From positions 65,357 through 129,356 of the forward strand of contig JACPKY010000001.1 of NCBI GenBank assembly GCA_016186795.1: a stretch of DNA of 64,000 nucleotides, read 5' to 3'. Below, piece by piece: positions 284 to 42,632 of this stretch. Within the stretch, counting starts at the first letter, position 1; every line of letters begins with the position of its first letter. This DNA comes from Candidatus Gottesmanbacteria bacterium. GTDB taxonomy: Bacteria > Patescibacteriota > Microgenomatia > 2-02-FULL-39-11. The notes below the pieces were generated by a model. The model was not told where the DNA came from, ran no database searches, and saw nothing but the letters and a program-made list of their open reading frames with translations. The translations under genes were made by a program, and so were the position numbers.

Positions 284-829
284 TTATTGTGCTCCGACTC
301 CATATCCTACAATCTGTAAATACCTGTTATCATCTGGATATTTAATTACTGCTTGACCGCTTTGTTTTGCTTTGAATGTGATCTTGGCAAGCATCATCGA
401 GCCTACCGGAAGAGTATTTGTTGCTCCTTTTACTACAAGGGCAACTCGGACAAAGTTATAGGTATTATCAAAACTCCCTTCTTTCATAACAACCGGCGCT
501 TCGGTAAACGCATAGGACGGATTTACTGTTTGAACTGCCGGAACAACATTTGTTGCCATAAGTTTCGCCTTATCATAAAGAATAGTCACATCCGCTCCAG
601 AAAGTTTTGCGCTTGAATCATTCATCTGAATCGTCGCAACAACGTCAAAATACTCTCCTGCATCGGGATTCGTATTCCCGGTAGATAAAAGAAGGTTAGC
701 ATTTCCTTGGAGTGCTCGAGGCCGAATATCTTGACCTTTCCGCGTCAGGTATAGAGTCACGGGAAGAGCAAAAAGAAGGAAAAGAAGGAAAAAGATAATG
801 AATTTTGAACGATTATTCATAGGTTGCAT
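284..829 (-). CDS. Hypothetical secreted/membrane-anchored protein (181 aa)
   Basis: N-terminal hydrophobic signal/TM (FIIFFLLFLLFALPVTLYL). It sits immediately downstream of, and overlaps, the subtilisin gene on the same strand. No recognisable catalytic motif. Confidence 0.5.
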   Translation of the reverse strand: MQPMNNRSKFIIFFLLFLLFALPVTLYLTRKGQDIRPRALQGNANLLLSTGNTNPDAGEYFDVVATIQMNDSSAKLSGADVTILYDKAKLMATNVVPAVQTVNPSYAFTEAPVVMKEGSFDNTYNFVRVALVVKGATNTLPVGSMMLAKITFKAKQSGQAVIKYPDDNRYLQIVGYGVGAQ

Positions 830-3371
830 ACAACGCTTGAATTTCTGTTGCCGTCAAAACTTTGTTGTACAATCGAACCTCATCAATTCGCCCTTTGAAT
901 GTTTTCCTCTCTGCATATAAATTCCCTATCGCTGCTTTTATATTACTATCATCCAGTCGGCTCCCGACACCAGTTGATTTCTCATTATGTTCATTTGCGG
1001 GAGCACCATTTTTATAAAACTTTACACCACTTGGATTTACAGACCCGTTCCATGTCACACAGACAAACTGCCACTGATCAAGTGCAATGAGATTATTCGG
1101 TCCAGATACTCGAAGATCCGATCCCGAGTAATTCACGCCGAACCGAAGTGTTTTATCAACGGTTCCCGCATTGTCATTTTCCAGTGAAAACCACAGTCTT
1201 GGACCTTTCGCATATATTCTTCCTTTGCCATCCTCACCAAAACTTTTCGGAAAAATCCATGCACATATGGAAAGTGCTGCAAGATTATTCAAAGATACAT
1301 CCGGATTCATGTACACTTTATCGTCGTCTCCATCAAACCTCCTCGCATTTCCAACTTTCCCGGGTTGAATTGATGTGCCTTCCGCAATCCCAGGATTTCT
1401 TCCTCTTTGATCAGCAACCGTTGTTCCAGATGTCTCATCCATCTTCCAATAACTGACAAGACCAGGAGAAACAGAAGGTGTTGGCGTTGGACTCCGTTGA
1501 GGAGTAGGAGTTGCTGTTGGATTCCCTCCTGGGGTAGGTGTAGACGTCGGATTCCCTCCTGGGGTAGGTGTTGCTGTTGGAACAGGACCGGTTGGAATTA
1601 CTTTTTTTCGTCTCCAAATTTCATAATCACTTAAATCAACAAAGTACGTTGATGAATTTCCTTCCACACATGAAAAATTGGCATTACTTTGAGAAGAGGG
1701 ACTCACAAATGTATTGTATTGCTGTACCCACAGTGCATAGTCCGCCTCATTTATAACGTTGTCACAATTCGCATCACCACTATTTTTTTGCGAACAATTC
1801 GCAGAAGGCGATGGACAATATGGACCTTGTGGATAGGGCGATGGAGGTATTTTGAGTAATTTTGGTGCTCCAGTTGTGGGATACGGTGTCATTGTTGGAA
1901 TTGTCGTAGGAGTTGGGGTTACTGTTGCTTCTGGCTGGTTTGATGGTGATGGAGTTGCGGTTGCCGCAACAGATGGCGTTCCTGTTAGTAAACTTTGGAG
2001 AGCAACAAGTGAGTTTACTCCGCCATGCGTACTTGCATTTCCTCCCCACGAGGAAACTCCAGCAGATTCAATAATTTGTCGAACAGCAGAATTTGAAAGT
2101 CCAGAATTTTTGGCAAGAATGAGAGCGGCAAGGGCTGCAACATGAGGAGATGCCTGTGACGTCCCTGCCATATAGGCATACTGACTATTCTTATAAAGAG
2201 AGACAATACACATGGCAACCTCACTATCCGGACAATCGTTCGGATTTGCATATCCAGTGCAACAATCGCCTCCTGGAGCTGCAACATCAACCCAATTTAC
2301 ATTTCCGCTATTGTGCTCAGAATATGAGGCGAGTTGGTTTGTCTTGGTAAGAGCAGCAACTGATATGACATTTGGGAAAGCTGCCGGATACATATTGGGG
2401 TTTGTCTCATAACCGGTTGGGGTAGGGTTTGTCCCATAAAAAATTGGGCAACTATTCGTTCCTCCGCAATTTCCTGCTGCTGCAACAACAACAATTCCCG
2501 CATTCCAGGCGCGATTTACTGCATCCCTTAGATCATTTTTTTCTGTTGCGTCAATATTTCCTTCATTCACTCCTAAACTCATATTGATGACATCAACATT
2601 TTGGGAAATAGCCCAATCGATACCACGGATAAGCATTGCCGTTGTTCCGGCTCCTTGGTAATTGAGAACTTTTGCCGAAACAATTTTTACTCCCCATCCG
2701 ACACTTGCTACACCTACTGAATTATTGGTCACTGCTCCAATAATTCCTGCCGCGTGGCTCCCATGTCCATGATCGTCAGCTCCTCCTGAGACACAACTTC
2801 CTGAAAGACAGTTCACACTTGTAACAATTTTCCCAGATAAATCGGGGTGATTTGCATCAACGCCGGTATCAAGAATTGCTACTTTAATCCCAGACGTTGC
2901 CGTATTAATTGCATTTCCCGAATTTCCCAAAATATCCCATCCCGACTGATTACCAGGGGTTGGATCGGCAACGCGAAAGGTAGAAAGATTCCATTGATCG
3001 GCAAACCCTGGATCGTTGGCCGTTGCCAGTGCATAGACGGTTGCCGGAATATATGCTGCCTCAACGTTCGGATTTGCCTTCACCTGAATGAGCGCTTGAT
3101 TTGCATCTCCAGTTACTCGGTAAACCAAGGCGTTTGTATTGGGGAGTCCACCCTCAAGGGACGTACCGGGCATAGAGGAAGACACTGAAAGGATCGATTC
3201 ACTTGCGGGAGCACTTTTTAATTTCACGACGATTTGCGTCGGTACGTCAGACGATTGGGCGATTTCTGACCGAGGAACAAAATCCTGTGCCGAAACGGTG
3301 AATCTCCCGATTGTTATAAGGAGCACCAATGTAAAAACACCCACAACTAATGTGGTGAGCTTTTTGGGCAT
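813..3371 (-). CDS. Secreted subtilisin-like serine protease (peptidase S8) with Pro/Thr linkers, a single dockerin-like Ca-binding repeat and a C-terminal LamG/ConA-like lectin domain
   Basis: Signal peptide (LVVGVFTLVLLITIG). S8 catalytic triad motifs: VAILDTGVDANHPDL (Asp), HGHGSHAAGIIGA (His), AAAGN (oxyanion Asn), GTSQASPHVAALAALIL (Ser). Tandem PTPTPGGNPT linkers. NCDNVINEADYALWVQQY resembles one dockerin repeat. C-terminal WKMDETSGTTVAD...RFDGDDDKV...RIDEVRLYNKVLTATEI matches the LamG_3/ConA-like fold. Confidence 0.85.
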   Translation of the reverse strand: MPKKLTTLVVGVFTLVLLITIGRFTVSAQDFVPRSEIAQSSDVPTQIVVKLKSAPASESILSVSSSMPGTSLEGGLPNTNALVYRVTGDANQALIQVKANPNVEAAYIPATVYALATANDPGFADQWNLSTFRVADPTPGNQSGWDILGNSGNAINTATSGIKVAILDTGVDANHPDLSGKIVTSVNCLSGSCVSGGADDHGHGSHAAGIIGAVTNNSVGVASVGWGVKIVSAKVLNYQGAGTTAMLIRGIDWAISQNVDVINMSLGVNEGNIDATEKNDLRDAVNRAWNAGIVVVAAAGNCGGTNSCPIFYGTNPTPTGYETNPNMYPAAFPNVISVAALTKTNQLASYSEHNSGNVNWVDVAAPGGDCCTGYANPNDCPDSEVAMCIVSLYKNSQYAYMAGTSQASPHVAALAALILAKNSGLSNSAVRQIIESAGVSSWGGNASTHGGVNSLVALQSLLTGTPSVAATATPSPSNQPEATVTPTPTTIPTMTPYPTTGAPKLLKIPPSPYPQGPYCPSPSANCSQKNSGDANCDNVINEADYALWVQQYNTFVSPSSQSNANFSCVEGNSSTYFVDLSDYEIWRRKKVIPTGPVPTATPTPGGNPTSTPTPGGNPTATPTPQRSPTPTPSVSPGLVSYWKMDETSGTTVADQRGRNPGIAEGTSIQPGKVGNARRFDGDDDKVYMNPDVSLNNLAALSICAWIFPKSFGEDGKGRIYAKGPRLWFSLENDNAGTVDKTLRFGVNYSGSDLRVSGPNNLIALDQWQFVCVTWNGSVNPSGVKFYKNGAPANEHNEKSTGVGSRLDDSNIKAAIGNLYAERKTFKGRIDEVRLYNKVLTATEIQALYATYE
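1490..1580. repeat. Imperfect ~30-bp tandem repeats encoding the PT-rich linker of the S8 protease
   Basis: Units gattccctcctggggtaggtgt[agacgtcg/tgctgttg] at 1520-1549 and 1550-1579, with a partial upstream copy. They encode PTSTPTPGGNPT repeats on the minus strand. Confidence 0.7.
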
Positions 3372-3435
3372 GTCCGTGTATTTATTCCAGTGTTGCAGAA
3401 AAAGAAAGTGGTGTCAATACAAAGATGCTAAGAAG

Positions 3436-6006
3436 TCATCTGCCAAATCGAGATCGGATCTCTTGGGTAGAAAGTACCCCACGATACATTTGCACTTCGT
3501 CAAGCGCCCCATCATAATAAAGTCCTTCAGGACCAATGGCACCAAAATAGAGATTCCTTGCTGAACTGTACTTTATTTCACCAGAAACTGATTTTGATGC
3601 TTTCTTTGCTCCATCGATATACAAAGCCATTTCTCCACTTCCGTAGGTACCAACTACTGAGTGCCATGTACCATCTAGAATAAGATTTTGAGGAAGTGAA
3701 AGTGAATCAGAGGTAATTTGCCCCTTCCCTACCAAAAAGTAAACAGTGTCTCGATACGTTCGAAATGTAATACCACTATAGGAAACAATATCGGTATTGG
3801 TGAAAAAATATTGACTACTACTGAATCCACCCAAATATTTTTGCGGAACTTGGGTATAATCAAATCCTGAAGGCCCAGGTGGTGGAACACCTTTTACCCA
3901 AAATCCAACAGTGAATGATTGCGGCTTGAGATTCTGGTTCATTGGAATTTCCACATATGACTTTTTGTTCCTGTCAAACACCCGCGCCAATCCCTCTTTT
4001 CCATTGGTAATTGTTGTTTGATAGGCAGTTCCATCATGATTTTTTTTGCTATCGCTTACGTTGTTTCCGGAATTTTCATCCATCTTCCAATCAGCTAAAA
4101 ATGTAGTATTTGCCGAAAGTGTAGGAGTTGGAGTACGGTTAGCCTGAATTGGTGTAGGTGTCTTTGTTGGTTGACCGGGGATAAGTGTCGGAGTCGGTGT
4201 TTTTGTCGGTTGTCCAGGTATAGTGGGTGTGGGAGTTCGTGTGGGAGTAGAAGGCTGCGTCGGTGTTGGCGTCTTGGAAGGATGTGGTGTTTGAGTGGTC
4301 GGAGTAGGAGTCGGGTTACCGCACTGGGGAGTTTTCCTGGCAACATGAGTACATGTTTGGAGTCCAGGTGGCTGCTGTACTATTTCGGTTGCCTCAACAA
4401 CTTTCCGCACCTGGTCACATGTTGATCCTGTTTTATAAAGATCATTGCAAGAACGCTTGAGGGCCTCTGCCATGTCTCGGAAGTTTGAACCTGCAGATAA
4501 ATATTTGTCCATCGCCCTATAAACAATTTGTATGGCTTTTTGTCTCTCAATACCTTGCATCGTGCACCCATTAAACGAACCTCCTTCTACGAGAAGATAG
4601 TACGTCTTATTCATAACTCCACTATTTGTATGCACCCCACCCGCATCGCTTGTACCACAATAGTAATAATTCGAATAGAGCCTGTCTGGATCGGATTTTT
4701 TGGGCGGATCATCCATGTATCGAAAAGGAGCATTGGGAATACTAGTATTTTCTCCTATCATCCAGTTTCCATCCATTTCCGATCCCATAATATCTGCCCA
4801 TGACTCATCAAGAGCTCCGGATTGGTTTTTGTAGACAAAATTCGATGTATAATCCGTCACTCCGTGCCCGAATTCATGACCAATAACATCGTACGCTACC
4901 ATTCCATTACAAAGCCTCATATGATCTCCATACCACCAAGCGTTTGGACAATACGGTGTAGTAGAGTCAACATGTACCCATGCCCGTTGTTTGGCTCCAT
5001 GATTATCGTAACTGTTCCGATGAAGTGTCTTGGAAACATAGTTGTATACGCTCCCCAATACGTCATATGAACCATCGACATCTGCATCGCCGTATGCAGG
5101 CTGTCCTTCTGTTCGCACAATTGGACACCCTCCGACGTTACAGTCTTTTATCTCCCGATTTGCCTCTTTCAGAAGAGATTCTTCGAAAATAACTGTTCCA
5201 TTTGACCTCTCAATAAAATATTTCATGGCAACTTGGGGATTTTCCGACTCTTCTTCGACGAAAACAGCAAACGTACTGTAGTTCGTCTCATCGTCAGAAA
5301 CGCCCAAGATACTTAAGTTGACAATGTATGGTTCTACTTTCATGACGCGGAAACCTTGAGCATTAGGATAGTCACTTTTTGCTTTCCCAAGAGCAATTCC
5401 TCTCGCCTGATCCTCAGAAATTGTTTGGACAGTTACTTCTGTACTTGTAGTGAGTGTTGCATCAATGGCATAAATCTCATTCCCATGACGCTCATGAAGA
5501 ATCATCTGCGCTGCGTATACTGGAGTTCCTCCAATTGTTTGCGTGTAAAAATAATGCTCCCCTTGCTTTTCAGGTGGTACCTCGGAGGTAGAATCTTCAG
5601 AATCGAGAATGACCCGAGAAAGTGTTGAGGAGGAAAAAAACCCGTCTGGAACAATCTTTACGAAGTCATCTCCACCCACTACCCTTCCCATAATTCCAAC
5701 CGTATTCCTGCCACTGGGAGCAGAATACGAAGGTGGGGAATTTAAAAATTCTGCAATCCCTGCTGCCCCTGACGATTGTGTCGTATAGAGATTTCCCTCC
5801 TCTGAATACAGAGAGTAACGCATTACTTTTGTTCCTGACGAAAAATACGAACCTCCAGAAAGGGCCGACGTATTGAGTGTTTTTAATGTTTGGGCTTTTC
5901 CCTGAAAGTAGGAACTGGTAGAAACGACCAATCCTGCGGTGATCAGGTTAAGGAGAAATAGAAGAAGAATCTTTGTGTTAAAAAGGTGATATCGACTTTT
6001 TTTCAT
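3436..6006 (-). CDS. Secreted thermolysin-like zinc metalloprotease (peptidase M4) with Pro/Thr linker and C-terminal LamG/ConA-like lectin domain
   Basis: Signal peptide/TM (ILLLFLLNLITAGLVV). M4 zinc-binding signature VIGHEFGHGVTDYTSNFVYKNQSGALDESWADIMG (HExxH plus ExxxD). Long PTPTxT linker (NPTPTPTTQTPHPSKTPTPT...). C-terminal WKMDENSGNNVSD...WHSVVGTYGSGEMALYIDG...LDEVQMYRGVLSTQEI module is paralogous to the C-terminus of the S8 protease. Confidence 0.8.
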   Translation of the reverse strand: MKKSRYHLFNTKILLLFLLNLITAGLVVSTSSYFQGKAQTLKTLNTSALSGGSYFSSGTKVMRYSLYSEEGNLYTTQSSGAAGIAEFLNSPPSYSAPSGRNTVGIMGRVVGGDDFVKIVPDGFFSSSTLSRVILDSEDSTSEVPPEKQGEHYFYTQTIGGTPVYAAQMILHERHGNEIYAIDATLTTSTEVTVQTISEDQARGIALGKAKSDYPNAQGFRVMKVEPYIVNLSILGVSDDETNYSTFAVFVEEESENPQVAMKYFIERSNGTVIFEESLLKEANREIKDCNVGGCPIVRTEGQPAYGDADVDGSYDVLGSVYNYVSKTLHRNSYDNHGAKQRAWVHVDSTTPYCPNAWWYGDHMRLCNGMVAYDVIGHEFGHGVTDYTSNFVYKNQSGALDESWADIMGSEMDGNWMIGENTSIPNAPFRYMDDPPKKSDPDRLYSNYYYCGTSDAGGVHTNSGVMNKTYYLLVEGGSFNGCTMQGIERQKAIQIVYRAMDKYLSAGSNFRDMAEALKRSCNDLYKTGSTCDQVRKVVEATEIVQQPPGLQTCTHVARKTPQCGNPTPTPTTQTPHPSKTPTPTQPSTPTRTPTPTIPGQPTKTPTPTLIPGQPTKTPTPIQANRTPTPTLSANTTFLADWKMDENSGNNVSDSKKNHDGTAYQTTITNGKEGLARVFDRNKKSYVEIPMNQNLKPQSFTVGFWVKGVPPPGPSGFDYTQVPQKYLGGFSSSQYFFTNTDIVSYSGITFRTYRDTVYFLVGKGQITSDSLSLPQNLILDGTWHSVVGTYGSGEMALYIDGAKKASKSVSGEIKYSSARNLYFGAIGPEGLYYDGALDEVQMYRGVLSTQEIRSRFGR

Positions 6007-7261: not shown

Positions 7262-9310
7262 TTAACATCCACCACCACATTTACACTGACCATTCGGGCA
7301 ACATACCGGATTATTATTCTCGCAAGGATAGCTATCACAACTGCCTGGATTGAAATTACATCCACCACCACCATCACCGGTACAACGTCCGCAGCAACCG
7401 CCATTACAGCCATAACCTGGCTCTTTATTACAACACTGTTCTGGACTTGAACAGCCTGAATGGCCATTGGGAACGCAGTAGGGCGGTTCTGTAGGTTCAG
7501 CTTTTTTTCCGCCGACGCAGTCATACCCCCATGTTTTGCTGGCATCAACGTACACACAGTAAACAGTTCCATCGGGGCATTCTGGCTTATCACCGCTACA
7601 TTTACTCTCATCAATCACTCGACAGATTGGTTCCCACGTATCATCTTCTTTCTGTGCACAGAGGATTGTTCCGGTGGAAGGACACGAAGGAGCAGTTTTC
7701 CCTTCACATTTATCCGCGTTCGGATCTACATCACATACGTCATCATTCCATTCCCACTTATCTTCCTCATCTTCTCCAACATTGATACACTCTTTGGCTT
7801 CCTCACAGGGTTTTTCCACATCCTTACACTCCTCTCCGTCGCTACTTACCGGATAACAATTTAATTTATATTTTCCGGAATCTTCCGAATCCTCTTCACA
7901 TTTGGTAGAATATTTTTTCCCGTCATCTGGACAATCTGCAGTCTGTCCCTCACATTTGTCTTTCGTAGTTGGAGGTGAAGTTGAGGCGGCAACACATGCT
8001 CCGGCAACACATGTTCGTTTGGGATCGTATGAGGCGCAATCTTCTCCAGTATCTTGCCATTTATAGGAAGTTTTTGTGTCATCGGGATCTGTATCAACAC
8101 ATGCTTGGGGATTCTTTGAACTAGGTGAACATCTCCTCTCGTTATTCGCAACTGCTACCTGATCACATTCGCTCTTAGTACTGTCTCCGCATGTGGCGTC
8201 TTTATCTGCTGCTGGTTGTATACAGTATGGTCCGTTGCATGAAACCTTGTCCTTTTTATAGCGGTGACTACTCGTATCACATTCCCAGTATCCACTTCGA
8301 TCACCCGTACAGGTATTGACACTACATGATGCTGGACTTTGAGAGAATGGCACGCACCCGGTTCCCTCAACACAATCCTCTTCGGAACCACAATCTTTCT
8401 TGGTGAGAGTTTTTCCATCGCTACTGCAGGAAACTTGGCGCTTTTTCCTCTGTCCCATGTCCTGGCAGGTAATCCCATTATTTTTGGCTTCATAGGTACA
8501 AAGCGTATCATCACATTTGCCGGTGGATTGGTTACATACTTTTCCATTAAGACAACCGTTGGGATCGGCAACCCACTGATTGCCGCTACTGCAGTTGTAC
8601 AATTTTCCATTAAAACATGCGGTGGTGTCATTGTCTGAATCACATGCCTTCTCCTTTTTTGGTTTACATTCGGCCTTGTCTGTACAATACTGGCTGTCTG
8701 CATCACACGGCGGATTAATATCGATCCAATTAGTCGAGTATTTGGGGCACTTTGATCGATAAATAACATTGTCCACCGGAGTGCAGTCATACAACTCTTC
8801 GGTGTTATTCCCATCGCACCCATCCGTCCCCAATGCACTTATATACTGCGCTTTCCCTGCTGCGGCAAGCTGATTATTGGCACAGAGTTGATTGCAGGCA
8901 ATTTTGTCATCAAGACTATCACTGTAAAACTGGCACGTCGACATCTGGTTGGTAAATAAATCTCGTTCGCAATATCCGTTCGTATTACAAACAAGGCATT
9001 GCCGAACCAAACTTGCCCCAGGTTGTTCAAGCTGCGTATCATCTCCAATCCCAATCCCCAGAAACGGTCCTTCAAAAATTGCTCTGGGGTTCATTGTAAA
9101 CACTCGTACAGTCATTGATCCGGCGTAAAAAGAGGCAAGGAGTGTTACTAAAACAAGAAGGAGAAGAAGAATCAGGGGAAACCGATGGTTTGACTCCAGA
9201 TGATGTTTCATCTGGTTCCATCGGGAAGACTTTTTCACTTGCATAGAAAACAGAGTGCTTTTACATGCACCCCTTTCTTCTAGTAAATGCTTTTTCCTTA
9301 GTCTTGTCAA
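7262..9310 (-). CDS. Large secreted, very cysteine-rich acidic protein (682 aa; roughly 90 Cys by eye)
   Basis: N-terminal TM/signal (FPLILLLLLVLVTLLASFYAG; alternative internal starts at MQVKK or MKHHLE are possible). The remainder is D/E/K/C-rich with dense CxxxC/CxC spacing. It ends in CCNKEPGYGCNGGCCGRCTGDGGGGCNFNPGSCDSYPCENNNPVCCPNGQCKCGGGC. No enzymatic motif. Confidence 0.6.
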   Translation of the reverse strand: MTRLRKKHLLEERGACKSTLFSMQVKKSSRWNQMKHHLESNHRFPLILLLLLVLVTLLASFYAGSMTVRVFTMNPRAIFEGPFLGIGIGDDTQLEQPGASLVRQCLVCNTNGYCERDLFTNQMSTCQFYSDSLDDKIACNQLCANNQLAAAGKAQYISALGTDGCDGNNTEELYDCTPVDNVIYRSKCPKYSTNWIDINPPCDADSQYCTDKAECKPKKEKACDSDNDTTACFNGKLYNCSSGNQWVADPNGCLNGKVCNQSTGKCDDTLCTYEAKNNGITCQDMGQRKKRQVSCSSDGKTLTKKDCGSEEDCVEGTGCVPFSQSPASCSVNTCTGDRSGYWECDTSSHRYKKDKVSCNGPYCIQPAADKDATCGDSTKSECDQVAVANNERRCSPSSKNPQACVDTDPDDTKTSYKWQDTGEDCASYDPKRTCVAGACVAASTSPPTTKDKCEGQTADCPDDGKKYSTKCEEDSEDSGKYKLNCYPVSSDGEECKDVEKPCEEAKECINVGEDEEDKWEWNDDVCDVDPNADKCEGKTAPSCPSTGTILCAQKEDDTWEPICRVIDESKCSGDKPECPDGTVYCVYVDASKTWGYDCVGGKKAEPTEPPYCVPNGHSGCSSPEQCCNKEPGYGCNGGCCGRCTGDGGGGCNFNPGSCDSYPCENNNPVCCPNGQCKCGGGC

Positions 9311-9475: not shown

Positions 9476-9549
9476 GCCTCCTTAGCTCAGTGGCAGAGCG
9501 ACGGTTTTGTAAACCGCTGATGACAGTTCGATTCTGTCAGGAGGCTCCA
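9476..9549 (+). tRNA. tRNA-Thr (anticodon UGU), CCA encoded
   Basis: Manual cloverleaf: acceptor GCCTCCT/AGGAGGC, D-arm GCTC-AGTGGCA-GAGC, anticodon stem ACGGT/ACCGC with loop TTTGTAA (anticodon TGT), T-arm GACAG-TTCGATT-CTGTC, discriminator T followed by CCA. Confidence 0.8.
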
Positions 9550-10066: not shown

Positions 10067-10149
10067 GCCAGGATGGCTGAGTGGACTAAAGCACGAGACT
10101 GTAAATCTCGCGCCGTAAGGCTTCCTAGGTTCGAATCCTAGTCCTGGCA
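10067..10149 (+). tRNA. tRNA-Tyr (anticodon GUA), long variable arm, no encoded CCA
   Basis: Acceptor GCCAGGA/TCCTGGC, anticodon stem CGAGA/TCTCG with loop CTGTAAA (anticodon GTA), long variable arm CGCCGTAAGGCTTC, T-arm CTAGG-TTCGAAT-CCTAG, discriminator A. Confidence 0.8.
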
Positions 10150-10185
10150 CTGAAGAGGATTTTGGCCCATGTCAGTTTAGACATG

Positions 10186-12870: not shown

Positions 12871-12952
12871 GCCGAGGTGGCTCAGTGGTAGAGCGAGTAC
12901 TTGGTAAGTACTAGGTCACGGGTCCAATTCCCGTCCTCGGCTCAGAAATTTT
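12871..12952 (+). tRNA. tRNA-Thr (anticodon GGU) with atypical T-loop (TCCAATT)
   Basis: Acceptor GCCGAGG/CCTCGGC, D-arm GCTC-AGTGGTA-GAGC, anticodon stem AGTAC/GTACT with loop TTGGTAA (anticodon GGT), T-stem ACGGG/CCCGT. Position 55 is C rather than U, which is unusual. Confidence 0.7.
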
Positions 12953-18300: not shown

Positions 18301-18374
18301 AGGCCCATAGGTTAATGGTAGACCAGAGGACTCCAAATCCTCTAGTGGGGGTTCGATTCCCTCTGGGCCTGCCA
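18301..18374 (+). tRNA. tRNA-Trp (anticodon CCA), CCA encoded
   Basis: Acceptor AGGCCCA/TGGGCCT, D-arm GGTT-AATGGTA-GACC, anticodon stem GAGGA/TCCTC with loop CTCCAAA (anticodon CCA), T-arm GGGGG-TTCGATT-CCCTC, discriminator G plus CCA. An extended -10 (TGgTATAAT) lies at about 18279-18287. Confidence 0.85.
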
Positions 18375-25341: not shown

Positions 25342-25770
25342 ATGAATACTTCACCAACTACACATAAATTTGTCGCAGTCCTGAATAAAAAGATTGAAAT
25401 TGGGAAACTTGTAAATGCCTTGGGCCACATGGCAGCAGGACTCTCCTCTCTTATTCCTGATAAAGTTTCCATGCGTTTTGACACGTACATAGATAAAAGC
25501 GGAAGTGAACACAAAAATATTTCAGATAATCCATTTATTATCCTCGCAGCAGATAACTCCAATCAAATAAGAACACTTCGAAACGAGCTTATTGCGCTAC
25601 AAATCCCTTTTACTGATTTCACAAACACGATGACCGTTGGAACATTTTTGGAACAAAAACAGAAAACGCGTGAAACACCGGAACTAGAGCTGGAATACTA
25701 CGGCATCTGCTTTTTTGGGGAAATTACCCAACTTTCCGATCTTACTCGAAAATTTTCCCTGTGGAGATAA
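25342..25770 (+). CDS. Hypothetical cytoplasmic protein (142 aa)
   Basis: Compact ORF, no motif recognised with confidence. Confidence 0.4.
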   Translation: MNTSPTTHKFVAVLNKKIEIGKLVNALGHMAAGLSSLIPDKVSMRFDTYIDKSGSEHKNISDNPFIILAADNSNQIRTLRNELIALQIPFTDFTNTMTVGTFLEQKQKTRETPELELEYYGICFFGEITQLSDLTRKFSLWR

Positions 25771-25825
25771 TTTTTCAGAGAATCCCATTGACAGGGATAG
25801 GAAGACTCTCTATGCTGAGAGTATT

Positions 25826-26626
25826 ATGGCCTCATCAGCAGAAAAAATTCCTTCAGATCTCTACCCAACACTGAAAATTACCCGCATCAAAAATCCAAAC
25901 AAATTTTATGCAATCCCTCTACTTGGTTTTTTGGTAAAAATTATTATCCTTCTTCCTGTGTATATCGTCTTTGCTATTTACGGAGTTGCACTCTTCCTTA
26001 TCCTTGCAATAAATTCGTTTTATATCCTTTTTACTGGCAAATTTTGGAAAAGCGCATATGACTTTGAACTCGGATTCATGCGCTATACCGCAAAATTGTA
26101 CTTTTTCTTTTTCGGACTAACTGACACGTATCCTGGTTTTGACTTCACCATCCATGACTCATATACTTTGGATATTCACTATCCCAAAAATCCCAGTCGC
26201 TTTTTTGCCATACCGATCCTGGGGGGAATTGTCCGGATGATTCTCCTTGTGCCATATTTTATCTTCGAACAGGTCGTGAGCACCGGCGGATTTATTGGTG
26301 TTGTTGTATCATTCTATAGAGTGTTAACAAAAGGAGAATATCCCGAAAGCACCTTTGAATTGGCACGCGACTCAGTCCGTATCCGAGAAGCTGCCGGAGC
26401 CTACATGATGGGACTATCAGACTCCTACCCAAGTTTCTGGATTTCCTTCAATCACAAAAATATAAAAATCGCCCTCATCATCGCAGGTATCGTTGTAAGC
26501 TTCGGAAACTGGACCAATCAAGATTTCTTCCACAATCAGTACGAGTACGATAGCAAATATCGTGATGAAAAACCTTTCTATGTCCCCAACCTTGAAGGAA
26601 GAGACCGAGGAATTCGTGCTTTGTAA
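25826..26626 (+). CDS. Membrane protein with two DUF4389-like repeats
   Basis: Two homologous halves, each with a hydrophobic hairpin followed by ...YTAKLYFFFFGLTDTYPGF... or ...AGAYMMGLSDSYPSFW.... The internal start MASSAEK is used to avoid overlap with the previous gene. Confidence 0.45.
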   Translation: MASSAEKIPSDLYPTLKITRIKNPNKFYAIPLLGFLVKIIILLPVYIVFAIYGVALFLILAINSFYILFTGKFWKSAYDFELGFMRYTAKLYFFFFGLTDTYPGFDFTIHDSYTLDIHYPKNPSRFFAIPILGGIVRMILLVPYFIFEQVVSTGGFIGVVVSFYRVLTKGEYPESTFELARDSVRIREAAGAYMMGLSDSYPSFWISFNHKNIKIALIIAGIVVSFGNWTNQDFFHNQYEYDSKYRDEKPFYVPNLEGRDRGIRAL

Positions 26627-26694: not shown

Positions 26695-27423
26695 ATGACT
26701 CCTGCCCAAGATAAAACTCAAAACCAACCATCGACTCTCCCACCCACTCCACCGCAAGTACCCACTCCACCTCCAATTGATCCACTCACTTCACCAATCT
26801 CACAATCACCAAGTCAAGCCCCACAAGTAAACGAACCAGGTATTCCCCTTCATCATGATACTTTGGGTGAAACCACGTCTCAAACTCCTCCAGTCTCACA
26901 ATCTGAACCTCTCCAAAGGGCAGTTCCACCAATTCCACCCTCAACAATTGCATCTCCGCCACCAAAAGACGAATCCATGCCTCATCCGCCACCATCAGCT
27001 CCACCTTTCGAGACTCCTCCATCACCTCCGCCGCCGCCTCCACCGCCACCAGGAGTTCCTCCTCCGCCGGTTATCGCAAATCCCAATGCGTATGGAAGTA
27101 AATTCCCGCATATGTTTGTCACCATCCTTATCGCTATCGTCATGCTTGGATTTTCTGGATCATTCCTCTACTTCCAATTGGTTCGTTCAAAACCAAATGT
27201 CACCAAACCTGCCATCACTCCTCCGGTATCCATACCGGTTGAACCATCAATCACCCCAGTGGTAAACCCATTTGCCACATCATCTGCTGAACTTGAAAAT
27301 CCATTCGCTACACCTTCTGCTGCAGTTGAAAATCCATTTGGACAAGCAGAAAATCCCTTTGAGCAATTTTCCGAAAGCACCAATTCCGGATCAGCACCCT
27401 ATACAAATCCATTTGCGCAGTAA
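26695..27423 (+). CDS. Proline-rich single-pass membrane protein with C-terminal NPF repeats
   Basis: N-terminal 140 aa are P/T/S-rich and include a PPSPPPPPPPPPGVPPPPV polyproline run. One TM helix (MFVTILIAIVMLGFSGSFLYF). C-terminus carries five (E)NPF(A/G/E) repeats. Confidence 0.5.
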   Translation: MTPAQDKTQNQPSTLPPTPPQVPTPPPIDPLTSPISQSPSQAPQVNEPGIPLHHDTLGETTSQTPPVSQSEPLQRAVPPIPPSTIASPPPKDESMPHPPPSAPPFETPPSPPPPPPPPPGVPPPPVIANPNAYGSKFPHMFVTILIAIVMLGFSGSFLYFQLVRSKPNVTKPAITPPVSIPVEPSITPVVNPFATSSAELENPFATPSAAVENPFGQAENPFEQFSESTNSGSAPYTNPFAQ

Positions 27424-27429
27424 CTTCGT

Positions 27430-28671
27430 ATGCAAAAAAAAATTACAACAATTCTTATCATCGTTATTTCCTTTTTTTTCCTAAGTCTTTTCGCCCCCTC
27501 AAATACGTCGGCACAGTACGTCCGGTTCCCGATTCCTGAACTTGGCTACTGTGAGGATCCAATCAGCTGTTATGATTTCTGTCAAATTCCAGAAAATTCT
27601 CCCGCTTGTTGGTCGTATGGGAAGTTTATCCTTAAAAAAAATGTCCTTGGAGAAGAAACGGAAACTCCGGAAGAAAAGGCAAGAAAAGCGGGAATTACTT
27701 TTCCTGTTGCGGAACTTGGGAATTGTACGGATGCAAAGTCTTGTATGGCCTACTGTAATGAGCCGGACCACTACGAAGCATGCAGTCAGTTTGCCCAAAA
27801 ACACGGTCTTAGGAAAAACGAAGATAACCAAAATGAGCCAAATCAGAAAATTCTCCAAGCTGCTGCCACTGAGCTAGGCTGTACCACTCCTGATGCATGC
27901 AAAGCTTTTTGCCAACGGGAAGAAAACGCAACGAAATGTAGTGAGTTTGGAGAAAAACATAAGCTCATCCAGTCAAAAAATAAGGTCACACGAGAGGTTA
28001 TTGCAAAAGCAAAACAAGAGCTCGGGTGCAACTCTGAATCCTCATGTCGAACCATTTGTAGTCAGGTAGAAAATCAGGAAAAATGCATGGCGTTTGGGAA
28101 GAAAGTTGGACTTGTAGAAGAAGAGAAATTCCAAAAATTTCAGGAAAACCAACAGGATCAGATGCGGACTTTAGAAAAAGCAAAACAGGAGCTTGGATGC
28201 GACTCGAGAGAATCTTGCAGTAATTTTTGTGAAAGAGAGGAAAATAAAGATAAATGCATACGGCTTCATGAAAGTGTGAGCCGGGACGATCGCGAAGGAA
28301 AAAATACAATCCAATCGGAAAATCGAGGTCCGTCAGAAAACCAAGGTCCATCCGAAAACCAGGGTCCAAGTGATAAGCGACCAGTTCAGACAAATCAATC
28401 CAGAGGTTCCGATACTCAAGGCTGCAAAACAGAAGCAGAATGCAAGGCAATTTGCGAAAAAAACCCAGATAAATGTCCCGGATTTTCCGAGTCTTCCTCA
28501 AAGATGGGAAAATCAAGCGCTGGATTTGAGGCCATTCGAGTCAAGGAAGAAGAAGAATTACGACGACAAAAAGGAAATAGTCCAAACGATTCACCTCGGG
28601 AGATTCCCAATCAGGAAAAACCAAAAGAAAATACTTCAACCAATACGTCGAATGGTGGATTCCCTCAATAA
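27430..28671 (+). CDS. Secreted cysteine-repeat protein (6 x about 35-aa four-Cys ELGC modules)
   Basis: Signal peptide (ILIIVISFFFLSLFAPSNTSA). Six copies of the [A/Q/T]ELGC-x4-5-C-x3-C-x5-8-C-x2-(F/H)G-x-K-(H)-x-L module, plus a tandem ENRGPSENQGPSENQGPSD repeat. Confidence 0.6.
   Translation: MQKKITTILIIVISFFFLSLFAPSNTSAQYVRFPIPELGYCEDPISCYDFCQIPENSPACWSYGKFILKKNVLGEETETPEEKARKAGITFPVAELGNCTDAKSCMAYCNEPDHYEACSQFAQKHGLRKNEDNQNEPNQKILQAAATELGCTTPDACKAFCQREENATKCSEFGEKHKLIQSKNKVTREVIAKAKQELGCNSESSCRTICSQVENQEKCMAFGKKVGLVEEEKFQKFQENQQDQMRTLEKAKQELGCDSRESCSNFCEREENKDKCIRLHESVSRDDREGKNTIQSENRGPSENQGPSENQGPSDKRPVQTNQSRGSDTQGCKTEAECKAICEKNPDKCPGFSESSSKMGKSSAGFEAIRVKEEEELRRQKGNSPNDSPREIPNQEKPKENTSTNTSNGGFPQ
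28321..28377. repeat. 18-bp tandem repeat (x3) encoding (S/R)ENQGP within the Cys-repeat protein gene
   Basis: ggtccgtcagaaaaccaa / ggtccatccgaaaaccag / ggtccaagtgataag. Confidence 0.6.
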
Positions 28672-28694: not shown

Positions 28695-29339
28695 ATGAAC
28701 CAAGATTCCTCTGCTCACATTCTCCTTCTTACCCTTCTGATTGTCATCACGATTAATCTCTTTATCCTTGATATTAAAATTTTTACACCAGCTGCCACCA
28801 GGTTTTCCGATATTAGTACGACTATTGTCCCAACTGCTCCTGTCGTATCGGCAGATGCAAATGAAAATAGCTGCCCGGCAAGTTGTGTAGGACTTATTCA
28901 AAATATCCAAACCTCTCAAACAAGTGCTGAATTGCCAATTCAATCCCAGACATCCTCCCAACTTCCCACAACTCGTGAATACTACATCCCTCTTGGGAGC
29001 GGATCAACCCAAAATACCCAGTGGGAAGATCTCACGACCACCGAAACGCTTATCGATACCGCTCTCTATGGGACAGTGAAAGAAGCGTATTTTATCGCTG
29101 CCCTTTCTAATCCTACGCAAAATGGCATTATCGAGGCTCAACTGTATAATGCGACTGATAAACATGCAGTATGGAATTCAAAAGTCACTATGAACGGTCC
29201 GTCATCACAGACCATCTCTTCAGGCTCGATAACGCTTGATGCTGGATCCAAACTTTACCGAGTTCAGCTTAAAAGCGGACTGGGATTTTCTGCATCTGTC
29301 ACTTCGGCAAAGATTAGAATTGTGACAACCCAGTGGTAA
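28695..29339 (+). CDS. Hypothetical membrane-anchored/secreted protein (214 aa)
   Basis: N-terminal TM (AHILLLTLLIVITINLFIL), then a Ser/Thr-rich region. No motif recognised. Confidence 0.45.
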   Translation: MNQDSSAHILLLTLLIVITINLFILDIKIFTPAATRFSDISTTIVPTAPVVSADANENSCPASCVGLIQNIQTSQTSAELPIQSQTSSQLPTTREYYIPLGSGSTQNTQWEDLTTTETLIDTALYGTVKEAYFIAALSNPTQNGIIEAQLYNATDKHAVWNSKVTMNGPSSQTISSGSITLDAGSKLYRVQLKSGLGFSASVTSAKIRIVTTQW

Positions 29340-42081: not shown

Positions 42082-42590
42082 GTACGTTGATAAGTGTTCA
42101 CATGCAGCACTTCCTTCCTGTTTCTTGATTGAAGGTATGAAACACCTGAAGCTTGGTAATGTAGAAAAGGGGAAAGTTAACTTGGCTGTCTATCAAGGCA
42201 GGTTCCAAATATTATTTTGCAAATATCTAAAACTCCTGATTCCGCTGGTACAAGCTGGCTTACAGAAGGCCAATAAACCAGCGGAACCAAGAGTCTTAGT
42301 TCTGTAATTTGCTTGTTTTTTAAAGTGCTATTTTTCTAGAATCATTTTATCAAAAAAGCAGATGCAGTCAAGTAGTTCTGTGATATTTCTTCATAAATAG
42401 AAAAATGAGGCTAGATAAAAGTACTTTTCATTTACGTGTTCTCCCTACATATGTGCCGGAAGAACCTATTGCTAAAGTTGAACCCTTATGATATAAATAC
42501 CTTTATCCAAAGACAGTAGGCAACCATAAGACCTACCGAGGAAAAATTAGTATCTAGTATTTGGTATCAAGTATTTAGAAGATTAATTTA

Positions 42591-42613
42591 CCTCGGAAAT
42601 CCGAGGTTTTTTG
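42591..42613 (+). terminator. Hairpin plus T-run immediately upstream of rplJ (leader attenuator or terminator)
   Basis: cctcggaaatccgaggttttttg: stem CCTCGG/CCGAGG, loop AAAT, then T6. It ends 20 nt before the rplJ start. Confidence 0.4.
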
Positions 42614-42632
42614 TTATTTGTTTTCTGAAACT

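Follow-up and report, generated by a model that had tools for sequence, protein, structure and literature searches.

What is the protein encoded by a gene with regularly spaced cysteines in a candidate phyla radiation (CPR) genome, and does it belong to any described family? We examined ORF 27430-28671 in a 64,000-nucleotide stretch of a Candidatus Gottesmanbacteria genome (assembly GCA_016186795.1, contig JACPKY010000001.1, positions 65,357 to 129,356; hereafter the window). The gene encodes a 413-aa protein with a predicted signal peptide and six copies of a small four-cysteine module that matches no described family, yet occurs across the CPR and is almost always paired with a small upstream membrane protein whose tail carries NPF motifs.

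Six modules with a fixed cysteine register

An earlier note, made from the sequence alone, described a secreted protein of six tandem four-cysteine modules of about 35 aa, and this observation is confirmed. The ORF has an ATG start and exists exactly as described. It contains 24 Cys in six groups, with the spacing C-x5-C-x3-C-x8-C in five groups and C-x5-C-x3-C-x6-C in the sixth. To test whether this pattern could arise by chance, we shuffled the mature sequence 20,000 times. No shuffle gave more than two such motifs, compared to the six observed. A module HMM recovers all six as separate domains (Table 1). The ENQGPS tandem repeat that the note placed between repeats 5 and 6 is real, as are the NPF motifs of the gene directly upstream. 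However, the conserved unit is about 38-46 aa, extending from about 8-10 residues before Cys1 to about 9 after Cys4, and the period is 49-58 aa (75 aa before the last module), rather than about 35 aa in tandem. The Cys spacing is fixed rather than variable (x4-5 and x5-8), as the note had written it.

Table 1 Features of the Cys-module gene and its neighbours in the window
Coordinates	Strand	Feature	Basis
26695..27423	+	Partner gene: 242-aa single-pass membrane protein with a Pro-rich N-terminal region, one TM helix and a C-terminal tail of five NPF motifs ending ...PYTNPFAQ; stop codon 6 nt before the start of the Cys-module gene	ORF; no Pfam family; an equivalent gene directly upstream of the module gene in 74 loci
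27112..27174	+	Predicted transmembrane helix of the partner (aa 140-160, MFVTILIAIVMLGFSGSFLYF)	Hydropathy maximum; short homologues have the helix at the N-terminus
27265..27414	+	Predicted extracytoplasmic NPF-repeat tail of the partner, with NPF at nt 27265, 27298, 27331, 27352 and 27406	Tandem Repeats Finder, period-33 repeat at 27264-27340
27430..28671	+	Gene for the secreted six-module four-cysteine repeat protein (413 aa)	ORF; 90 full-length homologues, E-values from 2e-130 to 8e-17
27430..27513	+	Sec-type signal peptide (aa 1-28; MQKKITTILIIVISFFFLSLFAPSNTSA|QY); no twin-arginine motif	Cleavage site after TSA predicted by eye
27508..27645	+	Module 1, 'first-module' type (FPIPELGYC...CWSYGKF); Cys 41/47/51/60	HMM E = 8.9e-16; pLDDT 88-94
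27682..27819	+	Module 2 (FPVAELGNC...CSQFAQKHGL); Cys 99/105/109/118	HMM E = 3.7e-19; pLDDT 89-96 in the full model, 83 in the single-module model
27838..27975	+	Module 3; Cys 151/157/161/170	HMM E = 1.4e-17; pLDDT 89-96
27985..28122	+	Module 4; Cys 200/206/210/219	HMM E = 7.6e-20; pLDDT 92-96
28156..28290	+	Module 5; Cys 257/263/267/276	HMM E = 4.6e-15; pLDDT 96-97
28315..28371	+	SENRGPS/ENQGPS low-complexity linker repeat between modules 5 and 6	Tandem Repeats Finder, 28314-28368, period 18, 3.1 copies; pLDDT below 50
28387..28512	+	Module 6, C-terminal 'x6' type (GCKTEAECKAICEKNPDKCPGF); Cys 332/338/342/349	HMM E = 1.7e-12; the x6 type dominates the last positions across the family
28513..28668	+	Disordered, charged and polar C-terminal tail (aa 362-413)	pLDDT 38-45; lacks the hydrophobic end seen in some Parcubacteria relatives
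28695..29339	+	Downstream 214-aa signal-anchored protein, probably not part of the core pair	blastp and tblastn hits only in five loci of the closest subclade (L004, L005, L007, L011 and L012); no Pfam family

No described family, but a wide distribution in the CPR

The note proposed a small disulfide-stabilised or metal-binding unit of no recognised family, and this interpretation is supported. Two outcomes had been named in advance as counting against it, a missing Cys register and a clear hit to an existing family, and neither was found. All four Cys are present in 2,027 of 2,066 module instances from 299 proteins, and the remainder are alignment-edge gaps plus one substitution. For the query, the best hit in Pfam-A 2025 has E = 0.066 and 13.8 bits (RRM_MARF1) and the best in NCBIfam 20.0 has E = 0.12. 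We detected no recurrent family over the modules of 64 diverse relatives, and searches of PDB sequences and PDB folds gave no significant match. The only recurrent Pfam signal is a borderline AtDEF-like hit (PF25052; 25.5 bits against a cutoff of 25) that covers the signal peptide plus module 1 of one relative and does not appear in the query. Literature searches found no description of the module or of the gene pair.

The note underestimated the scope of the family, which is not a one-off protein. A profile search found 1,951 protein clusters with the module, with up to 13 modules per protein, in many Microgenomates and Parcubacteria lineages. A word-indexed homologue search with the 46-column module alignment found nothing. 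The full-length family alignment was too divergent for back-translated locus searching, so loci were retrieved using an alignment of modules 1-2 from 16 close homologues. An N-terminal hydrophobic segment is present in 200 of 225 family proteins. Many relatives have long P/Q/G-rich tails, and 32 of 299 have a hydrophobic C-terminus of their own. Some relatives add Laminin_G_3, Kazal, Big_13 or an N-terminal beta domain to the same array. One locus lies in a record titled Aenigmatarchaeota, but its neighbouring genes do not diagnose the domain of life. No phage carriage of the module was detected in IMG/VR with the patterns used.

Predicted fold and comparison with known cysteine-rich modules

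AlphaFold predicts each module as a short N-terminal turn carrying Cys1, then helix 1 carrying Cys2-x3-Cys3, then helix 2 carrying Cys4. The pLDDT is above 90 inside the modules and below 50 in the linkers, with a pTM of 0.47, which fits independent beads. The conserved polar residues read as helix-capping boxes (S-x-x-E before helix 1, [N/H]-x-x-E before helix 2). Conservation is therefore dominated by fold determinants, as expected for a structural module.

We compared the module with the closest known systems. Twin-CX3C small Tim proteins, twin-CX9C CHCH proteins such as Cox17, and plant alpha-hairpinins (C-x3-C...C-x3-C) are also small helix-loop-helix units with four Cys, including a CxxxC on one helix, and there too the expected role of the Cys is to staple the helices after transfer into an oxidising compartment. 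However, these have two equally spaced Cys pairs, one on each helix, whereas the register here is C-x5-C-x3-C-x8(6)-C in 517 of 520 modules of the close family. There is thus only one CX3C, and the other two Cys lie in the N-terminal turn, five residues before Cys2, and two turns into helix 2. The modules are also repeated in tandem 3-13 times in secreted bacterial proteins, and no sequence or Foldseek similarity was found.

Kunitz/BPTI domains are likewise small secreted disulfide modules that can occur in tandem, and they share local motifs with the module (S-x-E-E-C-x2-Y-C and G-P-G-G-C-K/R, compared to S-x-E-[ED]-C-x3-C in the Kunitz C-terminal helix and its G-P-C-K loop). The relationship was rejected because Kunitz domains have six Cys in a different register (C-x8-C-x15-C-x7-C-x12-C-x3-C) and a central beta-hairpin, hhalign against BPTI gives 6% probability over 11 columns, and the PDB profile E-value is 0.22. 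Plant defensins share a signal peptide and the C-x5-C-x3-C-x9/10-C spacing of their Cys2-Cys5. They require the downstream C-x-C...C strands, eight Cys in all and the CS-alpha-beta fold, whereas the module has four Cys and is predicted to be all-helical. The hhalign probability is 4%, and the borderline AtDEF-like hit does not lie over the mature peptide alone; this relationship was also rejected. Zinc ribbon, zinc finger and ferredoxin-type Fe-S motifs require CxxC knuckle pairs or CxxCxxCxxxCP and, for Fe-S proteins, a cytoplasmic or Tat-exported location. They do not apply: there is no CxxC in any module, and the signal peptide is Sec-type without RR.

A near-obligate upstream partner gene

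In 74 loci from many Microgenomates and Parcubacteria lineages, including the window, the gene directly upstream encodes a single-pass membrane protein with Y-x-N-P-F repeats. Junctions are mostly -4 to +11 nt, with frequent 4-nt overlaps, and an NPF lies within the last ~8 residues of the partner in all 74. The family-wide motif is Y-x-N-P-F-[ED], spaced 7-11 aa. The number of NP motifs rises with the number of modules (Spearman 0.46 overall, 0.57 and 0.44 within the two clades), although this correlation is not corrected for phylogeny. We define the pair by a signal peptide, at least three modules with the C-x5-C-x3-C-x6/8-C register, and a directly upstream same-strand gene for such a membrane protein. 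The window and 73 other loci fit this definition. The downstream gene was rejected as a third component because it is syntenic only in the closest subclade. Promoter and terminator scans around the pair were at chance level.

We also looked for fusions of the two genes and found none; the N-terminal extensions in some relatives are a different beta-rich domain or a lectin domain. NPF is not enriched within module proteins (19 observed against 24.6 expected). The eukaryotic EH domain offers an analogy of mechanism only, in which a repeated N-P-F motif in a disordered tail would be read by a small helical domain. The EH domain, however, is a cytosolic EF-hand pair of about 100 aa with a conserved Trp pocket, and no EH or EF-hand signal is present in the query or in 64 relatives. 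In non-covalent surface-anchoring pairs of monoderm bacteria, such as cohesin-dockerin and WxL proteins with their small membrane partners, a secreted multi-domain protein lacking its own anchor is encoded next to a small membrane-anchored partner. No homology to any of those domains was found, and binding in the present pair is only inferred.

Cysteine parity of exported proteins

To evaluate whether the organism oxidises exported Cys, we compared Cys counts across the window. All 11 Cys-containing exported proteins have even counts, against 5 of 19 cytoplasmic ones (Fisher p = 8.7e-5). A VKOR gene lies 1.3 kb from the orthologue in one related locus (L005), and an MdbA-like oxidoreductase and VKOR are reported as CPR-enriched (PMC6744442). 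No VKOR, DsbA-like or other oxidoreductase gene was found in the window itself. Based on export, the even and invariant Cys count and this parity, the module falls in the functional class of disulfide-bonded extracytoplasmic domains, although the disulfides themselves are inferred.

Interpretation

We tentatively favour a Sec-exported envelope or surface protein in which six modules are strung on flexible, low-complexity linkers. In this view the four Cys of each module are most likely oxidised after export to two disulfides that staple the mini-domain, giving a protease- and stress-resistant, beads-on-a-string scaffold. The protein is co-expressed, and often translationally coupled, with the upstream membrane protein, whose Y-x-N-P-F motifs we infer to dock onto the modules and so hold the otherwise anchorless scaffold at the cell membrane. 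In other lineages the scaffold carries lectin, Kazal, Ig-like or other head domains. The gene, its repeat and export signals, the breadth of the family, the Cys invariance, the predicted helical fold, the conserved gene pair and the even-Cys bias rest on the analyses above. Disulfide formation is a likely inference, the scaffold role is inferred, a Cys pairing of C1-C3/C2-C4 or C1-C4/C2-C3 is only a guess from helix geometry, and docking of NPF to the modules is speculative. The evidence favours disulfides over metal binding but does not prove it. There is no direct evidence for disulfides, and the invariance of all four Cys fits a metal site equally well. An attempt to infer disulfide partners from pairwise Cys loss was uninformative, because the Cys are never lost in pairs. 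The absence of fusions and of NPF enrichment within module proteins leaves docking without Rosetta-stone support, and relatives with a hydrophobic C-terminus of their own would not need a separate anchor. It should also be noted that these organisms live mostly in anoxic groundwater, where extracellular disulfides are less favoured.

The best surviving alternative, although unlikely, is a free-standing wall-spanning protein, S-layer-associated protein or adhesin, with the NPF-tail protein a separate envelope component that merely shares the operon, with no direct docking. The long P/Q/G-rich tails, the hydrophobic C-termini of some relatives and the absence of fusions are consistent with this, and lectin and Ig-like accessory domains suggest adhesion. 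Against it, the adjacency is near-universal and tight across very divergent lineages, which with the 4-nt overlaps is typical of subunits of one complex, motif and module numbers co-vary, and the query has no anchor of its own.

Somewhat less likely, though still possible, is that each module is a Cys4 site for Zn, Cu or Fe in an extracellular metal-binding, metal-buffering or metallochaperone array. The four Cys are retained all-or-none, an N/H position five residues after Cys3 is 95% conserved with His in 40%, and CxxxC pairs bind copper in Sco and CuA proteins. However, a Sec-type rather than Tat signal means that no cofactor can be pre-loaded, there are no CxxC knuckles, the N/H position sits where a helix N-cap is expected and Asn is its more frequent residue, and the even-Cys bias points to disulfide chemistry. 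AlphaFold folds the module confidently without a metal, although this is weak evidence.

A multi-headed protease inhibitor, with each module presenting a reactive loop (for example G-P-G-G-C-[K/R]-[S/G/T]) that protects the cell surface or a host interface, remains possible but is very doubtful. Tandem arrays of small disulfide modules are typical of such inhibitors, 5 of 64 relatives carry a bona fide Kazal domain after the array (E = 8e-14), the variable residue after Cys1 is K or R in 37% of instances, the best, non-significant PDB sequence hits are Kunitz domains, and the window encodes secreted S8 and M4 proteases. Against this, the similarity to BPTI is negligible by hhalign, the predicted all-helical fold has no canonical inhibitor loop scaffold, and the near-obligate partner is left unexplained. 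A chance Cys pattern or non-coding ORF is refuted by the shuffling test, the 90 full-length homologues and the 1,951 clusters.

Small disulfide-stapled helical modules in secreted repeat proteins are familiar as a general kind, but at the level of the family and the gene pair nothing described matches. The analysis turns one odd ORF into a domain family with a fixed Cys register, a predicted fold, about 2,000 sequence clusters and a near-obligate partner gene conserved across both Microgenomates and Parcubacteria. This provides a concrete two-protein target for structural and binding experiments and a candidate new Pfam family or pair of families, and the Cys parity gives a clean in-genome signal that this organism makes extracytoplasmic disulfides. 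A further reading is unlikely on present evidence but not excluded: the two genes would form a CPR-specific envelope system with no described counterpart, in which a disordered tail of YxNPF motifs docks multivalently onto a chain of disulfide-stapled mini-domains, building a tethered extracellular scaffold that in different lineages presents lectin, Kazal, Ig-like or other heads for contact with host cells. It would then be a core piece of the unknown surface architecture of these episymbiotic ultra-small bacteria. CPR bacteria make up a large share of bacterial diversity, are mostly uncultured and appear to live attached to other cells, yet the proteins that build their surface are almost entirely unknown, and the pair described here is a possible handle on CPR envelope organisation and host attachment.

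The ORF encodes six four-cysteine modules

The ORF starts with ATG and encodes a 413-aa protein. Its product has 24 cysteines in six groups of four, of which five are spaced C-x5-C-x3-C-x8-C and the last C-x5-C-x3-C-x6-C. To test whether this arrangement could arise by chance, we shuffled the mature sequence 20,000 times, and no shuffle produced more than two such groups. A profile built from the family finds six modules in the protein, with individual E-values between 1.7e-12 and 7.6e-20. The N-terminus (MQKKITTILIIVISFFFLSLFAPSNTSA, predicted to be cleaved before QY) is a classical Sec signal peptide without a twin-arginine motif.

The observation made in the earlier note is thus real and needs only small corrections. 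The note described tandem units of about 35 aa with variable Cys spacing, whereas the conserved unit is about 38-46 aa with a period of about 50-58 aa, and the Cys spacing is fixed. The ENQGPS repeat that it placed between modules 5 and 6 is confirmed (period 18 nt, 3.1 copies), as is the NPF protein encoded immediately upstream, which carries five NPF motifs.

Features of the window and of two homologue loci considered in the analysis
Coordinates	Strand	Feature
27430-28671	+	Gene for the secreted protein with six four-cysteine modules
26695-27423	+	NPF-tail partner gene; five NPF motifs, TM helix at aa 140-160, ends PYTNPFAQ 6 nt before the module gene's ATG
26695-27111		139-aa extremely Pro-rich N-terminal extension of the partner, including a run of nine Pro
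28695-29339		Downstream gene
25342-25770 and 25715-26626		DUF2000 and DUF4389 genes preceding the pair
813-3371 and 3436-6006	-	Two large exported proteases, a subtilase (S8) and a thermolysin-like enzyme (M4), each fused to a C-terminal ConA-like lectin domain (Laminin_G_3)
7262-9310	-	682-aa ORF with an N-terminal hydrophobic segment and 68 Cys (10%) in the mature part
42489-42621	+	Ribosomal protein L10 leader (Rfam RF00557, 50.8 bits)
9476-9549, 10067-10150, 12871-12943, 18301-18374	+	Four tRNA genes (Thr-TGT, Tyr-GTA, Thr-GGT, Trp-CCA)
2947-5234 of homologue locus L005		DUF2000 and DUF4389 genes preceding the pair, with an AbiEii gene inserted between them
625003-633434 of CP066684.1 (homologue locus L046)		Full pair: a 90-aa NPF-tail gene and a 579-aa module gene with a 0-nt gap

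The modules match no described family

We scanned 64 diverse relatives against Pfam at E <= 1, and no recurrent family was found over the modules. The one recurrent signal, AtDEF-like, is a borderline hit of 25.5 bits against a cutoff of 25 that spans the signal peptide plus the first module of one relative, and it reflects the C-x5-C-x3-C-x9 spacing that plant defensins share. Direct hhalign comparisons of the module profile with BPTI and with a plant defensin, using reference sequences that were not retrieved from a database, gave 6% and 4% probability over 11-14 columns. Literature searches found no description of the module or of the gene pair.

The module is widespread in, and as far as seen restricted to, the CPR

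A homologue search returned 90 full-length relatives at 24-52% identity. All are unannotated, and every named source is Candidatus Gottesmanbacteria. They have 3-7 modules with the same register, 322 of the x8 type and 195 of the x6 type, the x8 modules at the N-terminal positions and the x6 modules at the C-terminal positions. A profile search of 1.84 billion cluster representatives found 1,951 proteins at E <= 1e-3 and 1,086 at E <= 1e-30, with up to 13 modules and lengths up to 1,555 aa.

We also scanned GTDB species representatives. Although only two narrow peptide patterns were used, 160 species were found. On the Microgenomates side the records are titled Gottesman-, Levyi-, Roizman- and Woesebacteria, and on the Parcubacteria side Yanofsky-, Lipton-, Nomura-, Azam-, Harrison-, Kaiser-, Uhr-, Colwell- and Doudnabacteria and Paceibacteria. 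Many TPA 'binchicken' MAGs carrying the pair (within loci L006-L085 of the homologue loci) are titled 'uncultured Gammaproteobacteria' or 'uncultured Candidatus Saccharibacteria', but their sequences group with Gottesmanbacteria or Parcubacteria members, so these titles are probably placeholder taxonomy. One record is titled Eisenbacteria and one Aenigmatarchaeota. The latter (L046) is a complete 875-kb chromosome titled 'Candidatus Aenigmatarchaeota archaeon', in which the genes neighboring the pair (DinB-type polymerase, DUF454, carbamoyltransferase) do not distinguish a mislabelled record from an occurrence in DPANN archaea. The best identity to any species representative is 52% and the exact protein is absent from a collection of 15 billion proteins; the organism of the window is therefore not itself represented. 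No phage contig in IMG/VR was found to carry the module with the patterns used.

Conservation and predicted structure of the module

Across 2,066 module instances from 299 proteins, all four Cys are present in 2,027, and the remainder are alignment-edge gaps plus a single substitution. The consensus is F-P-I-x-E-L-G-N-C-x-D-x-x-E-C-x-x-Y-C-D-I-P-x-N-x-x-A-C-W-S-F-A-K-x-x-G-L for first modules and G-P-G-G-C-x-S-x-E-E-C-x-x-Y-C-x-D-P-x-[N/H]-x-E-E-C-x-x-F-A-x-K-x-G-L for internal modules.

AlphaFold2 with the family alignment gives pLDDT above 90 for 206 residues, all inside modules, and below 50 in the linkers and the C-terminal tail. The pTM is 0.47, which indicates independent beads on a string. 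Each module is predicted as a short turn with a beta-bridge carrying Cys1, then helix 1 carrying Cys2 and Cys3 one turn apart, then helix 2 with Cys4 about two turns in. The conserved polar positions fit helix-capping boxes, S-x-x-E at the start of helix 1 and [N/H]-x-x-E at the start of helix 2, although this is our inference. The conserved aromatics (Y/F before Cys3, F three residues after Cys4) fit a mini-core. Conservation is thus dominated by fold determinants, as in structural repeat modules.

A conserved upstream gene encodes a membrane protein with an NPF tail

Beyond what the earlier note had seen, the upstream gene proved to be a conserved partner. In homologue loci a small gene sits directly upstream on the same strand, and a systematic analysis of the retrieved loci found this arrangement in 74 loci including the window, which is nearly every locus with a complete module ORF. 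The upstream product is a single-pass membrane protein of about 75-280 aa. Its tail carries NP[F/L/I] repeats with consensus Y-x-N-P-F-[E/D], spaced 7-11 aa, and an NPF lies within the last ~8 residues in all 74. The junctions cluster at -4 to +11 nt, with 19 cases of 4-nt overlap, which is typical of translationally coupled subunits.

The Pro-rich N-terminal extension of the window's partner is lacking in the short (75-130 aa) homologues, whereas longer versions (197-281 aa) occur in its closest relatives, in loci L004, L005, L007 and L012. With a short or long cytoplasmic N-terminus and a single TM helix, the tail is inferred to be extracytoplasmic, in the same compartment as the secreted module protein. 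The number of NP motifs rises with the number of modules (Spearman 0.46 overall, 0.57 in the Gottesmanbacteria-type clade and 0.44 in the rest), but it should be noted that these points are not phylogenetically independent. The partners have no Pfam family. No fusion of tail and modules was found, and NPF is not enriched inside module proteins.

The downstream gene is syntenic only in the closest subclade. The DUF2000 and DUF4389 genes precede the pair both in the window and in L005, the closest syntenic relative; the listed TTG start of the DUF4389 ORF in the window overlaps DUF2000 by 56 nt and is probably too far upstream. Otherwise the neighborhoods differ. Thus, we conclude that the pair is the conserved unit. 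The L10 leader and the tRNA genes of the window are ordinary bacterial chromosome content.

Disulfides are favored over metal binding

Invariance of all four Cys does not discriminate between disulfide bonding and metal binding, but three observations favor disulfides. First, the protein is Sec-exported. Second, among window ORFs of at least 150 aa, every protein predicted to be exported (by a crude hydropathy rule) that contains Cys has an even number in its mature part (11 of 11, with counts 14, 10, 68, 2, 2, 2, 4, 24, 2, 2, 2), whereas 14 of 19 cytoplasmic proteins are odd (Fisher test, P = 8.7e-5). This is the signature expected of organisms that oxidise exported cysteines, a logic that reportedly goes back to Dutton et al. 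2008. The protein with 68 Cys is a second, unrelated Cys-rich exported protein with no Pfam family and irregular Cys spacing, ending in a very dense C/G-rich stretch. Third, Méheust et al. 2019 report an MdbA-like extracytoplasmic thiol-disulfide oxidoreductase family enriched in CPR and often adjacent to VKOR (PMC6744442), and a VKOR gene lies 1.3 kb from the orthologue in L005. Against disulfides, no oxidoreductase is seen in the 64-kb window and these organisms are mostly from anoxic habitats. The disulfides are inferred, without support from the S-S geometry of a model.

The array is combined with other extracellular domains

In relatives, the same array is combined with C-terminal or N-terminal ConA-like lectin domains, with Kazal domains (5 of 64 relatives) and with a Big_13 Ig-like domain. 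The lectin domain is the same as that attached to the two exported proteases of the window. In twelve proteins of the family set (P0101, P0132, P0141, P0163, P0169, P0171, P0176, P0192, P0201, P0208, P0216 and P0217), a conserved beta-rich domain of about 100 aa (residues ~30-130; ...LKKDxxGLFTLTIxDPxGIxxFSLxPxGxxxYGGxLxxCPxxxxxxNVxFxDPxDFTPxMxAxIxDCxGN...) sits between the signal peptide and the first module. The three of these that were scanned (P0101, P0132 and P0192) gave no Pfam hit over that region, and it is possibly another undescribed extracellular domain. In relatives the array is also combined with long P/Q/G-rich tails, which in 32 of 299 proteins end in a short hydrophobic segment. 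Parcubacteria-type members (P0100, P0106, P0175 and about 30 others) often end in a long P/Q/G/S-rich low-complexity region followed by a 12-20-residue hydrophobic segment and one or two basic residues, for example ...LVGTIISAFVSAFVALFTR. This may be a C-terminal anchor or sorting signal, and it is absent from the Gottesmanbacteria-type members, including the protein studied here.

Interpretation

We consider it likely that the module is an extracytoplasmic, disulfide-stapled structural unit. Docking of the NPF tail onto the modules is doubtful on present evidence, and the combination of the two is only tentative. The gene, its repeat and Cys register, the breadth of the family, the gene pair and the Cys parity come directly from the analysis, whereas disulfide formation, helix capping, the location of the tail, the scaffold role and docking are inferred, and the function is not established. 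Among the alternatives, an envelope protein or adhesin that stands free of its operon partner, with no binding between the two, survives best but is unlikely, and a Cys4 metal-binding array is less likely still. A multi-headed protease inhibitor is the least likely, although it gains some support from the Kazal co-occurrence, the G-P-G-G-C-[K/R] loop and the secreted S8 and M4 proteases.

The interpretation offered in the earlier note, an unrecognised Cys-repeat family that is disulfide-stabilised or metal-binding, is supported and can be widened. Small disulfide-stapled helical modules in secreted repeat proteins are familiar as a general kind, but at the family level the module matches nothing described. 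It is a CPR-wide domain with a near-obligate NPF-tail partner. Its modular usage suggests a scaffold or stalk that presents heads at the cell surface. The protein studied here has no head domain and no anchor of its own, which makes tethering by the membrane partner the most economical reading, and confirmation of tail-to-module docking and of a core envelope role would give the pair greater significance.
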